NCBI GenBank assembly: GCA_963805945.1
Contig: CAWDVP010000006.1
Coordinates: 1 to 64,000, forward strand
DNA: 64,000 bases
From: Vulcanimicrobiota bacterium
GTDB lineage: Bacteria > Vulcanimicrobiota > Vulcanimicrobiia > Eremiobacterales > Eremiobacteraceae
Direction of reading: 5' to 3'
In this document: positions 15,557 to 18,500 of the stretch, piece after piece
Numbering within the stretch: position 1 is the first letter of the stretch
Layout of the letters: each line of letters begins with the position of its first letter
Program-made: the position numbers

Positions 15557-18500
15557 TAAAGACCTCGAAGACCGCATGAAGAAGGCGGTCGAGGCGACGC
15601 GCGGTGAGTTCGCGGCGATCCGCACCGGACGGGCCAACACCGCGCTGCTCGACCACGTCGTCGTGCAGGCGTACGGCACCGAGATGCCCCTCAAGCACTG
15701 CGCCACCATCTCGATCCCGGACGCGCGCAGCATCGTCGTGCAGCCCCACGACAAGTCGATCATCGGCGACGTGCGCAAGGCGATCGAGACTTCGGATCTC
15801 GGCGTGACGCCCAACGTGGACGGCGGCGTGATCCGTCTGAGCTTGCCGCCGCTCAACGAAGAGCGGCGCAAAGACCTCGTGAAGCTGGTGCACAAGCGCG
15901 CTGAGGACGGCCGCGTCGCGGTGCGCAACGTCCGCAAGGACGCGCACAACCAGATCCAGCACGCGCAGCGCGACGGCAAGGTCACCGAGGACGAGGCGCA
16001 TCGCGGCAACGACCAAGTGCAGAAGCTCACCGATAAGTTCGTCGCGGATGTCGACGCCTTGGCACACACCAAGGAAAAAGAGATCATGGAGGTCTGATCG
16101 CACTGGCGCACGAGGACCTCATCAACTTGCCCTATGCGCTCGCGCTCGAGCGGCTTAAAGAGCGCGACGTATACGTGCGCGTCCTCGCGCCGCCGTACGC
16201 CGGCGTGGGCGTGGGCGAGCTGCGCGTCGTGCGGGCAGAAGAGCGGGGCGACGCGATCGAGCTCGTCGTGACCTACGCCGACTACGAACGCATCGAGCCG
16301 CCGCCGAAGAAACCCGACGGCAGCGCCGGCCCATCAGGGACGGCATGACCACCGCGGTGGCCGGGCACGTGGATTCCGGCGCGCGGTTGCGACAAGAGCT
16401 CTCCGGCAAACGCGTCGCCATCGGCCTGGCCATGGCGGTCGTCGGCATCGGCTGCGTGTTCTCACCGCCGCTGTTCGCGCTGCTCATCCTCACCATCGGC
16501 GTCCTCAGCGCGATAGAATTCGCGCGTCTCACGCAGCGCGCGGGCGCGACGGCGTCGCTGTGGGTGGCGATCCCCGCGGTCGCCGCCTACATCGTGGCGT
16601 CGTACTTCCGCGTCAGCGACGATTTCGAGTCGGGCATCCTCGTCGTCGTCATCGTCACGTCGATGATCGCCGCTCTGGCCGGCGGCGTGGACCGTTTTGC
16701 GGTGCGCTGGGGCATGACCGTGATCGCCGCGCTGTATCTCGGCAAGATCGGCTCGTACCTTGTTTCGGTGCGCCAGCTGCCCCACCACGGCGGCGCGTAC
16801 ATGCTGTGGCTCATCGTGATCGTCGGGCTCACCGACGTGGTGGGCATGATCGTCGGCCTGCGCTTCGGCAAGACGCCGCTGGCGCCGCGCATCTCGCCCG
16901 GCAAGACGTGGGAAGGTGCGATCGGGGCGTTCGTCGTCGCCACCGCGGCGGGCACGCTGCTCGGTTTGATCCCGCGCGTCGGCGCGCCATGGTATCTCGG
17001 GCTCACCTTCGCCGGCGCGGTCTCGATCGCCGCACAGCTCGGCGATCTCGTCGAATCGGCGCTCAAGCGCAACGCGCAGGTCAAGGACTCGGGCCGTCTG
17101 CTCGTGGCGCACGGCGGCGTGCTCGACCGCTTCGACTCGTACATCCTAGCCGGCGTCGTGGCATACGCCGTGCTCCTATGGTTCGGCCGCGCCTCGGGCT
17201 AGACGTATGCGGCGCATCGCCATTCTGGGTTCCACCGGTTCGATCGGCTCCCAAGCGCTCGATATCATCGGGCGCTATCCGGAGCGCTTCGCCGTCGCCG
17301 GTCTTGCCGCCAACACCAACGTCGCAGCGCTCGCGGCGCAGGCCGGACGCTTTCGGCCGGCGGTGCTCTCGCTTGGATCGGCGTCGCTCGCCGAAGAACT
17401 GCGCGGCAAGCTGAGCTATGTTCCGCGTGCGATCGGCTGGGGCGCCGAGGGCCTCGCGATGGTGGCGGCTGCTTCGGACGCACAGCGGGTGCTCGCGGCC
17501 AGCGACGGCATCGCGGCGCTCGACGCGGTGATGCTCGCCCTCGCGGGCGGCACCGACGTCGCGCTGTCCAACAAGGAACTGCTCGTCGCCGCCGGCGAGC
17601 CGCTGCTCGCGGCCGCGCGAGGATCAGGCGCGCGCGTGCTGCCGGTGGATTCAGAGCACAGCGCGGTGTTCCAATGCCTGCTCGGCGAACGCGTCGAGGA
17701 CGTCGCGAGCGTCGTCCTGACCGCGAGCGGCGGGCCGTTCCGGGAGCTGTCGCTGCTCGACATGCGCGACGTGACGCCGGCGCAGGCGCTCGCGCATCCG
17801 ACATGGGTGATGGGCCAGAAGAACACGATCGATTCGGCGACCATGATGAACAAGGGGCTTGAGGTGATCGAGGCGAGCCGGCTGTTCGGCTTGACGCCCG
17901 AGCAGATCGAGGTCGTCGTGCACCGCCAAAGCGTGGCGCATGCGTTCGTGCGCTTCAAGGACGGCAACGTGAAGGCGCAGTTGGCGGCGCCCGACATGCG
18001 CGTGCCTATCGGCTATGCGCTCGCGTATCCGGAACGGCTGCCCGATGCGGACGCAGGCAAGACCCGTGCGGCGCTCGGTCTCGGGTCCGCGCCCGCCGAG
18101 TTGACGTTCGAACCGCTCGACAATAGTCGCTTCCCAGCAGTGCAGCTGTGCTATCGCGCGCTGCGCGCGGGCGGGACGTGTCCGGCCGTGCTGTCGGCGG
18201 CGAACGAAGAGGCAGGACGCGCCTTTTTGCAAGGGAAAGTGAAGTTCACCGAGATTTGTGCGCTCGTCGAACGCGCGCTGGACGCTCACTCGGCCGAGGC
18301 GCCGACGCTCGAGGCGATCCGCCGGGCCGATGCGTGGGCCCGCGAGGCGACGCTCGAAGAGATCGCGCGACTCCACGGTCGAATAAATTCGACCGCTCCA
18401 GCAATCACTAAAGGATAGGCTCCCCATCCACACCATCCTGGCCCTCATCGGCGCGCCGAATCTGACGACCCTGTGGCAGGTGGCGCTCTTCTTGCTCACC

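Follow-up and report, generated by a model that had tools for sequence, protein, structure and literature searches.

The analysed window is the first 64,000 nt of a contig from the C-numbered set of the source genome (G000; GCA_963805945.1), which is 82% complete. It contains a conserved run of genes in the order rpsB-tsf-pyrH-frr-orf-cdsA-dxr-rseP-ispG-proS. The cdsA gene (16345..17202, + strand) is an intact reading frame of 285 aa, extending from ATG to TAG, and matches PF01148 (E 5e-48), in agreement with the first-pass annotation. Its product is a predicted phosphatidate cytidylyltransferase, which would convert CTP and phosphatidic acid (PA) into CDP-diacylglycerol (CDP-DAG). The protein passes the PF01148 cut-off and carries the SxKxxEG, DxxESxxKR and HGGxxDRxD motifs, with SPGKTWEG, GDLVESALKR and HGGVLDRFD read from the sequence; the same motifs are found in four other class genomes. 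Its score of 96 lies below the NF008635 equivalog cut-off of 385. The gene is single-copy in five of five further genomes.

Upstream in the run lies frr (15540..16097, + strand; PF01765, E 4.5e-62), followed by a small ORF (16127..16348, + strand) that is the reciprocal best hit of a 77-aa ORF occupying the same place in a second genome, G001, where the 77-aa ORF has no Pfam match. In G001, uppS follows the small ORF; in G000 it is absent from that position and sited at C2:219601-220313. Downstream, dxr (17207..18418, + strand) contains three DXR Pfam domains, and rseP and ispG (18480..20665, + strand) are assigned from their ORFs and orthologues.

Other lipid genes lie outside the window. G000 has plsY (C3:177851-178480), plsX (C6:390411-391433), plsC (C6:403521-404111), three GGDGT-type lipid kinases, one DgkA-type protein and two MGDG-type glycosyltransferases, which bears out the earlier inventory; the Pfam domains of the retained lipid genes were checked on G001 orthologues. 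The three motifs of PlsY appear canonical. Lgt (C2:95071-95949), LspA and Lnt are all intact, and a lipid A cluster is located at about C2:281000-291500. The two Lgt proteins noted previously are both present in G000, but the second is found in only one of five genomes, G000 itself. A PgpP-type phosphatase is retained, with PgpP-type genes adjoining DAG kinases, and FakA/DegV-like genes are present. DUF92, of CdsA-like fold, is found in G001 and not in G000. The cultured isolate had been described as showing no named phospholipid; its thin-layer chromatogram shows one phospholipid spot and four glycolipids, and the legend of supplementary Fig. S8 in the isolate paper labels the spot 'PL: unidentified phospholipid' (PMC9758169).

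Gaps in the class and in the phylum

No PF01066 match is present in G000, as reported earlier, and a profile built from 38 CDP-alcohol transferases of the phylum returned nothing below E 0.36 in its 24,858 six-frame ORFs and nothing in the 2.4 Mb (68%) of G001 that was searched. A scan of G000 for the CDP-alcohol signature motif gave four matches, one over a plausible hydrophobic frame; none scored with the profile. The extension of this absence to the entire class does not hold. Among 151 class genomes, eight pass the PF01066 cut-off, and 22 carry some CDP-alcohol transferase (19 of YnbA type, detected with a profile built from weak full-length PF01066 matches, and three sporadic), leaving 129 without one. 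The YnbA type occurs in 17 of 44 genomes of genus g13 and in 0 of 31 of the family of G000. Its gene sits in a run designated ynbA-plsC-ynbB, after the E. coli names. The run resembles the E. coli YnbA/YnbB operon: the transferase has an N-x-x-DG motif, and its neighbours are an acyltransferase and a CdsA paralogue. Because it is present in just 19/151 class genomes, YnbA cannot be the core route; it was rejected as core head-group synthase and given an accessory role.

PgsA (TIGR00560) is above cut-off in none of the 201 phylum genomes, with three weak matches and 6 of 14 controls above. The PF01066 matches outside the class, on which a contrast between class and phylum had been drawn, do not concern PgsA: 26 of the 28 scanned are PssA-like. 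The PgsA gap is that of the whole phylum and the GpsA gap that of most of it, and PssA loss alone marks the class.

Full-length GpsA (PF01210), with up to 17 candidates scored per genome, is found in 0 of 144 class genomes, as the first-pass annotation had it, and in 21 of 57 outside (controls 11/14). Ten class matches are partial and weak (E 1e-10 or worse), and the best match of a local GpsA profile in G000 has E 0.005. Outside the class, GpsA is confined to f5 (16/17) and f11 (5/5), where f1, f2, f5, f10, f11, f17 and f18 are family labels and g13 a genus label. The usual gene order is der-plsY-gpsA, and gpsA is missing from this place; the order is der-plsY-efp in the class and f11, and efp-apbA2 in f5, f17 and f18. 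The archaeal-type G1PDH EgsA/AraM (PF13685) is found in 0 of 101 class genomes at E<=1e-12 (controls 10/14), which widens an earlier, narrower check to the class. Among 121 class genomes surveyed for each, a GlpD domain is present in 22 and GlpK above cut-off in 21, none of them in the genus of G000, as previously stated; these are a minority, and GlpK/GlpD was rejected as core backbone source on that ground. Scavenging through GDPD was rejected as well, GDPD being found in 0 of 5 genomes.

The gap is largely real but was misdrawn. Most class genomes cannot run the sequence from GpsA through PlsY/PlsC and CdsA to PgsA/PssA. The claim that the canonical route is unusable was nevertheless overstated, given the YnbA-type transferases, the phylum-wide extent of the PgsA gap and a CdsA whose retention alone calls for no missing transferase. 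Passages of two studies state that E. coli CdsA also makes GlcNAc-PP-DAG (PMC6362211) and that PA and CDP-DAG can serve Lgt, inefficiently, in pgsA-null E. coli (PMC8027125); the presence of CdsA is thus no proof in itself that a transferase is missing.

That a common soil phylum has no PgsA and mostly no GpsA, and that one of its classes has no PssA either, points to undiscovered lipid enzymes. Both GpsA and PgsA are regarded as nearly universal among free-living bacteria. In passages of the respective papers, a survey records that only Atribacteria and Caldiserica lack GpsA (PMC5059525), and PgsA serves as the marker for bacteria that make PG (PMC11804483). The titles and abstract openings retrieved from the literature contain no report of these gaps in this phylum.

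The PanE-fold reductase ApbA2

A candidate backbone source, of which the earlier reading had none, is ApbA2, a PanE-fold reductase encoded outside the window (C2:576070-577128). ApbA2 was singled out by inspection of a single list before it was profiled; in one sample of 201 phylum genomes (144 in the class, 57 outside) it is present in 175 of 180 GpsA-negative genomes versus 3 of 21 GpsA-positive ones. It occurs in 140 of the 144 class genomes, as a rule in one copy. ApbA2 and GpsA occur together in three genomes, and five have neither; two of these five have GlpK and GlpD (p 0.15, not significant). Fisher tests of the observed complementarity give 2e-18 and 4e-5, values that overstate the case because it rests on few lineages (f11 and part of f5). 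PanC is absent from all 22 f5 and f11 genomes. Outside the class, the families that lack PanC comprise 32 PanC-negative genomes, in which ApbA2 occurs in 10 of 11 without GpsA versus 3 of 21 with it; since the contrast holds there, pantothenate does not seem to explain it. Canonical SerA is above cut-off in 95 of the 201 genomes, including G000 and all 13 genomes of f18; because SerA and ApbA2 co-occur in G000 and f18, SerA does not explain the contrast either.

ApbA2 carries ApbA and ApbA_C domains and narrowly passes the TIGR00745 apbA/panE model (143.8, cut-off 141.35). It matches no GpsA model: PRK00094 gives no match, and the local GpsA profile gives E 0.72. Its fold is closer to PanE (5ayv_A: Z 30.1, rmsd 2.6, 271 aligned) than to GpsA (1txg_B: Z 18.5, rmsd 4.0, 264 aligned; 16-17% identity). 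ApbA2 is of the same superfamily as GpsA, yet not a GpsA member, and the proposed common reaction would make it an enzyme that works like GpsA. In E. coli PanE, N194 and N241 bind the substrate 4-OH, according to a passage of PMC10127515. In a sequence alignment, ApbA2 has Pro at N194, Lys at N241 and Arg at T238; of 167 family sequences, 164 share the Arg and 158 the Lys. ApbA2 shares with the PanE/ApbA family, which includes D-mandelate dehydrogenase, its fold and residues N98, K176, N180, N184, S244 and E256, and the kept N184/S244 carboxylate site suits a 2-oxo acid. It differs from that family in the three substitutions, in a basic insertion of roughly 20 residues, in a C-terminal extension and in a distribution that tracks GpsA absence more than PanC. 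A membrane-binding helix in the insertion was considered and discarded, as its hydrophobic moments (0.46 and 0.24, versus 0.36-0.41 in controls) are not distinctive; the basic charge alone is notable.

A scan of genome contigs found 555 relatives, and the 80 that were listed are all close. In 80 phylum loci, nrdR and dut flank the gene in 72, and plsY, plsX, plsC and cdsA are not among the neighbours listed. Across 80 loci of a distant clade, a histidine phosphatase lies upstream in 53, glpD upstream on the same strand in nine and glpK in six; none has panB or panC nearby, and none lies beside plsY, plsX, plsC or cdsA. A plasmid search for the distant clade gave no match. A fused form joining ApbA2 and a lipid enzyme was also discarded, the two long matches found carrying an unassigned N-terminal domain. 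Among the titles and abstract openings retrieved, there is no report of a PanE-fold glycerol-phosphate dehydrogenase.

A proposed route and its alternatives

In the proposed route, PA would still be built by PlsX, PlsY and PlsC, with the backbone coming from a displaced enzyme. ApbA2 would reduce either DHAP, giving glycerol phosphate, or acyl-DHAP, giving lyso-PA, and its R-G-x-K-x-P-S motif would hold the phosphate; that ApbA2 replaces GpsA in this manner is an evenly poised proposition. PA would mostly be dephosphorylated to DAG for MGDG-type glycolipids, with lipid A filling the outer leaflet, as gene content and the isolate chromatogram suggest, and a smaller flow would pass through CdsA to CDP-DAG. 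Taken as a whole, this route is the best explanation, held with slightly less than even confidence. It resembles the Bacillus-type Kennedy pathway with PlsX/PlsY in PlsX, PlsY, PlsC, CdsA, PgpP, the MGDG-type glycosyltransferases, the FakA/DegV-like genes and Lgt/LspA/Lnt, and differs in that most class genomes have no GpsA, PgsA or PssA and that a lipid A cluster is present.

Without PgsA and PssA, CDP-DAG may be passed to an alcohol by a soluble, class-wide PLD-fold protein (C2:697489-698439), the weaker of the two candidates and a tentative one. In the class its gene turns up in 35/35 genomes (E<=2.4e-31), and matches outside the class are weak only. The predicted model (pLDDT 82.6) has a two-domain PLD fold, with Z 22-28 to PLDs including PssA (H. 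influenzae 3hsi_A: Z 23.9, rmsd 3.2, 287 aligned). The first HxK motif is present in 13 of 13 sequences; the second catalytic His is present in 4/4 from f1 and 0/9 from f2. The protein resembles PLD-type phosphatidyltransferases, such as the PssA of E. coli and Haemophilus and yeast Pgs1, in its soluble two-domain fold with HKD motifs. It differs from them in its length of only about 270-300 aa, in the loss of the second His in f2, and in that PssA is outscored as a structural match by other PLDs, a viral F13 protein and PLD4 and equalled by polyphosphate kinase. In G016 the gene is split. Nuc nucleases are among the protein's relatives by sequence.

Alternatively, the pathway may not lack a head-group synthase at all. 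PA and CDP-DAG would themselves be the anionic lipid, ending the pathway and acting as donors for Lgt, with CdsA perhaps retained for an MPIase-like sugar-PP-DAG. This reading is possible but doubtful; it concerns the head group only and is compatible with an ApbA2 backbone enzyme. CdsA's second product, the isolate's single phospholipid and the PgpP-type genes beside DAG kinases, which fit a PA/DAG cycle, are consistent with it, and so are pgsA-null E. coli suppressors, which live without PG on PA and CDP-DAG with inefficient Lgt donation, as described in a passage of PMC8027125. These suppressors, however, are a laboratory state that keeps PE, unlike a natural lineage that also lacks PssA; a passage of PMC11804483 gives PGP as the substrate of PgpP homologues in B. 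subtilis and S. aureus, and the class-wide PLD-fold gene would be left unexplained. That very divergent copies of PgsA, PssA or GpsA exist and were overlooked is very improbable. YnbA-type matches did lie near the PF01066 cut-off, three more surfaced only with the custom profile, the PF01066 search was silent in one of 14 controls, and GpsA scoring had its limit of candidates. A Pfam scan found no CDP-alcohol transferase among 92 of 102 shared membrane proteins (eight transporter-like and two cut ones were dropped), drawn from two genomes covered to 82% and 68%. Against an oversight, none of the eight scanned proteins without a Pfam family resembles such a transferase by eye, the local unfiltered profile searches of G000 and G001 were negative, and genomes in a single contig are PF01066- and PgsA-negative as well.

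The backbone assignment has two competitors. ApbA2 could be the phylum's ketopantoate reductase (PanE), as databases annotate it, with the backbone supplied by another enzyme, which appears rather unlikely. The TIGR00745 score, the PanE-like fold, the kept catalytic and carboxylate residues and the lack of PanC in f5 and f11 agree with this annotation; ApbA2 is the sole ApbA-family (ApbA_C) protein in G016 and G002, and IlvC is absent from G000, G016 and G128 with PanB and PanC present, which favours a PanE role. ApbA2 co-occurs with panB/panC in the class, but it is also retained by 13 genomes outside it, in families that lack PanC, the substrate-binding N194 and N241 are replaced, and ApbA2 was not seen beside pan genes, the distant loci having no panB or panC close by. 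In G190 a short panE distinct from ApbA2 lies within panB-panE-panC, and G020 has PanB and PanC without an ApbA_C match. G001 has three other ApbA paralogues, and a 2-hydroxyacid dehydrogenase linked to panB in G000 and three of five relatives is a possible substitute for PanE. It is improbable that ApbA2 acts on another phosphorylated 2-oxo acid (phosphohydroxypyruvate, SerA-like, or the PdxB substrate) and that the GpsA link is a lineage coincidence. The kept carboxylate site combined with a new basic site, the position of serC immediately before the gene in G168, the histidine phosphatase of the distant loci and the scarcity of canonical SerA in g13 (3/44) point that way; yet serC adjacency is seen once among 11 outside-class loci, the phosphatase scores 61.6, far below the PspA cut-off of 350, and canonical SerA stands alongside ApbA2 in G000, G001, f10, f17 and f18.

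If ApbA2 works as the proposed DHAP or acyl-DHAP reductase, many 'ketopantoate reductase' annotations are wrong, and the chirality of its product is of direct relevance to the lipid divide. With the DHAP phosphate in the Arg/Lys site, which takes the place of the 4-OH site of PanE, the si-face hydride transfer of PanE would give (S)-glycerol phosphate, which by CIP descriptors is sn-glycerol-1-phosphate. It is a long shot that ApbA2 represents a glycerol-phosphate dehydrogenase class of its own, giving this product, and that a minimal PLD makes the single phospholipid; were it true, most of a bacterial phylum would have ester lipids on an archaeal-handed backbone without G1PDH.

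The cdsA locus and head-group transferases

The cdsA gene (window 16345-17202) is intact (PF01148, E 5e-48) and lies in the usual run rpsB-tsf-pyrH-frr-cdsA-dxr-rseP-ispG-proS. The window belongs to contig C6 of the source genome, G000. This assembly, with a completeness of 82%, contains split genes resembling assembly indels; the question concerns genes missing elsewhere than this locus, hence the analysis was carried out on genome samples (G-numbers, phylum genomes). Between frr and cdsA (window 16097-16345), uppS is absent in G000, G016 and G027 and present in G001 and G011; the sole uppS of G000 (contig C2:219601-220313) is frameshifted. 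An Amj flippase gene (PF10997, window 25066-25891) occupies two frames, and a peptidase-like gene (window 23576-25043) is likewise split, both probably through assembly indels.

In the class Vulcanimicrobiia, PF01066 exceeds the cut-off in 8 of 151 genomes (controls, 13/14). Weak full-length matches in genus g13 form one family with an N-x-x-DG motif; their genes are clustered with those of an acyltransferase and a CdsA paralogue, an arrangement that resembles E. coli ynbA/ynbB. This ynbA-plsC-ynbB run is found in 17 of 44 g13 genomes (e.g. G128, L010), and a profile built from the protein family matches 19/151 class genomes and 0/31 in the taxonomic family of G000. With sporadic copies in three further class genomes, 129/151 are without any CDP-alcohol transferase. 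The first-pass annotation, which denied such enzymes to the entire class, was thus wrong in that absolute wording; most of the class does lack them, and for PgsA and GpsA the gap is wider than claimed. Sporadic transferases on G078 L001 and G062 L003, one ClsA/PgsA-like and one DIPP-synthase-like, possibly reflect transfer or bin contamination.

PgsA proper is over the cut-off in none of 201 phylum genomes, and 26 of the 28 outside-class matches scanned are PssA-like; therefore, the PgsA gap is phylum-wide, with PssA additionally lost in the class. An unfiltered local search with a 38-sequence profile gave no match in G000 or 68% of G001. The Fig. 6 legend of PMC11804483 mentions groups mostly without PgsA.

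Use of CDP-DAG and the lipid complement

A soluble PLD-fold protein (G000 C2:697489-698439) is a putative user of CDP-DAG, a tentative lead. Its gene is present in 35/35 class genomes, with just weak matches to other PLDs outside, and adjoins menG in 11 of 12 loci examined. The protein resembles PLDs broadly, H. influenzae PssA included; all nine sequences of family f2 lack the second catalytic His, and G016 carries a split copy of the gene. Among outside-class genomes, weak PLD matches are seen in 8 of the 11 that lack PF01066 versus 8 of the 40 that have it, the proteins differing from the class one. Equally possibly, PA and CDP-DAG are themselves end products and Lgt donors, as a passage of PMC8027125 describes for pgsA-null E. 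coli, and CdsA may make sugar-PP-DAG, an activity that a passage of PMC6362211 gives for E. coli CdsA; against this, the kept PgpP homologue speaks for a PGP-like lipid (a passage of PMC11804483). Open frames of ~825-870 aa with PLD domains are seen in G151, G159, G164, G168, G172 and G177 (f4, f12, f15), mostly genomes without PF01066.

Because G000 has intact Lgt, LspA and Lnt, a diacylglyceryl donor must exist. A second, divergent Lgt lies next to a radical SAM gene (G000 C7:7222-10141), with none seen in four other genomes. For the cultured member, the main-text passage of PMC9758169 gives one polar lipid, four glycolipids and seven lipids, none identified, and the legend text of supplementary Fig. 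S8 calls that polar lipid an 'unidentified phospholipid'. An lpxD-lpxC-fabZ-lpxA-lpxB-lpt cluster, identified from sequence and supported by Pfam for LptF/G only, explains the 3-OH fatty acids (>27%) given in the same paper. A motif search of G000 gave no clear match for lpxK, waaA or kdsA. In this lipid A cluster (G000 C2:281000-291500; G001 L078-L079), lpxB is followed by a metallophosphoesterase, and there is a 360-390 aa gene without assignment.

The backbone gap and distribution of ApbA2

Full-length GpsA is found in 21/201 phylum genomes, all of which belong to families f5 and f11; among class genomes the count is 0/144. In four of five genomes viewed (G000 included), plsY lies between der and efp with no gpsA, the downstream gene in G128 lying beyond view; the order der-plsY-efp is common to the class and f11. 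G1PDH is absent from 101 genomes searched; GlpD and GlpK are over cut-off in 22/121 and 21/121, tallies that include the unpublished G014, and in 0/38 of g13. In the parts covered, the only groups that PMC5059525 gives as lacking GpsA are Atribacteria and Caldiserica, PMC6431249 does not mention the phylum under the terms looked for, and titles and abstract openings gave nothing on these gaps in this phylum or on a glycerol-phosphate dehydrogenase of PanE fold. In G001 (L086:7664-10566), glpK is present without glpD, and the gene before it codes for a GlcD-like FAD oxidase, which may be another glycerol-phosphate oxidase. A DAK2-domain gene, plsX and degV form one run after rpmB (G000 C6:389572-393072; identical order in G001), resembling fatty acid kinase FakAB.

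ApbA2 (G000 C2:576070-577128) is a long PanE-like protein among the G000 Rossmann proteins, and recurs in G001 in a shared nrdR-dut-apbA2 run. NCBI names a Vulcanimicrobium alpinum member '2-dehydropantoate 2-reductase'. It occurs in 178/201 phylum genomes, namely 175/180 without GpsA versus 3/21 with it in the same sample, counting the unpublished G014 and G129 (173/178 otherwise) and with three unlisted negatives placed in f5 from tallies. Families f5 and f11 lack PanC (tally including G014 and G129), as do f9 and f12-f15, where ApbA2 is kept; in the 32 genomes of PanC-lacking families, ApbA2 is present in 10/11 without GpsA versus 3/21 with it. The genomes are kin, and the signal therefore reduces to perhaps two or three ApbA2 losses, each in a GpsA-bearing lineage.

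Active site, neighbourhood and role of ApbA2

Aligned to E. coli PanE, ApbA2 keeps N98, K176, N180, N184, S244 and E256, while N194 becomes Pro, N241 Lys and T238 Arg. In the PanE model described in a passage of PMC10127515, N194 and N241 bind the substrate 4-OH; N194 is retained in the short PanEs of G190 and G001. Across 167 family sequences (to 35% identity with phylum members), Arg is found in 164 and Lys in 158. Basic residues where PanE binds a hydroxyl thus suggest, at the sequence level, a phosphate ligand. The predicted model (pLDDT 92.3) has its nearest structural matches in PanE and D-mandelate dehydrogenase; opine dehydrogenases and GpsA come next.

By neighbourhood, efp is the sole connection between ApbA2 and plsY: ApbA2 follows efp in f5, f17 and f18 (4/11 outside-class loci). 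In a distant clade of 80 metagenome loci, to which no taxon is attached (ranking ninth is an Atlas cluster whose commonest phylum is Chloroflexota), a histidine phosphatase precedes ApbA2 in 53; same-strand glpD lies upstream in 9 and glpK in 6, just 38 loci having at least 2.3 kb upstream. None of the 80 contains plsY, plsX, plsC, cdsA, gpsA, panB or panC.

A PlsX/PlsY pathway variant with GpsA function taken over by non-orthologous displacement is probable, and ApbA2 has about an even chance of being the enzyme that supplies the backbone. It is the best new result, a specific and cheaply testable candidate. That ApbA2 is instead ketopantoate reductase is less likely. In favour of that role, G016 and G002 have no other ApbA-family protein, and four of five genomes examined are without IlvC; the pantothenate step could, as a guess, fall to a D-2-hydroxyacid dehydrogenase directly behind panB in G000 and three of five relatives. 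Action on another substrate is improbable; the retained carboxylate site and one serC neighbour permit a phosphorylated 2-oxo acid. Against a SerA-like role, SerA and ApbA2 occur together in most of 95 SerA genomes; canonical SerA is scarce in g13 (3/44). Rather improbable too is a backbone product of sn-glycerol-1-phosphate, which would be categorically new.

In G000 (C6:272682-274423), panB overlaps the D-2-hydroxyacid dehydrogenase gene, and the two are also adjacent in G016, G006 and G002; this enzyme may be a novel ketopantoate reductase in genomes lacking short PanE and IlvC. In two ApbA2-family proteins, P0143 and P0214, an unknown Cys/His-containing domain is fused N-terminal to ApbA2.
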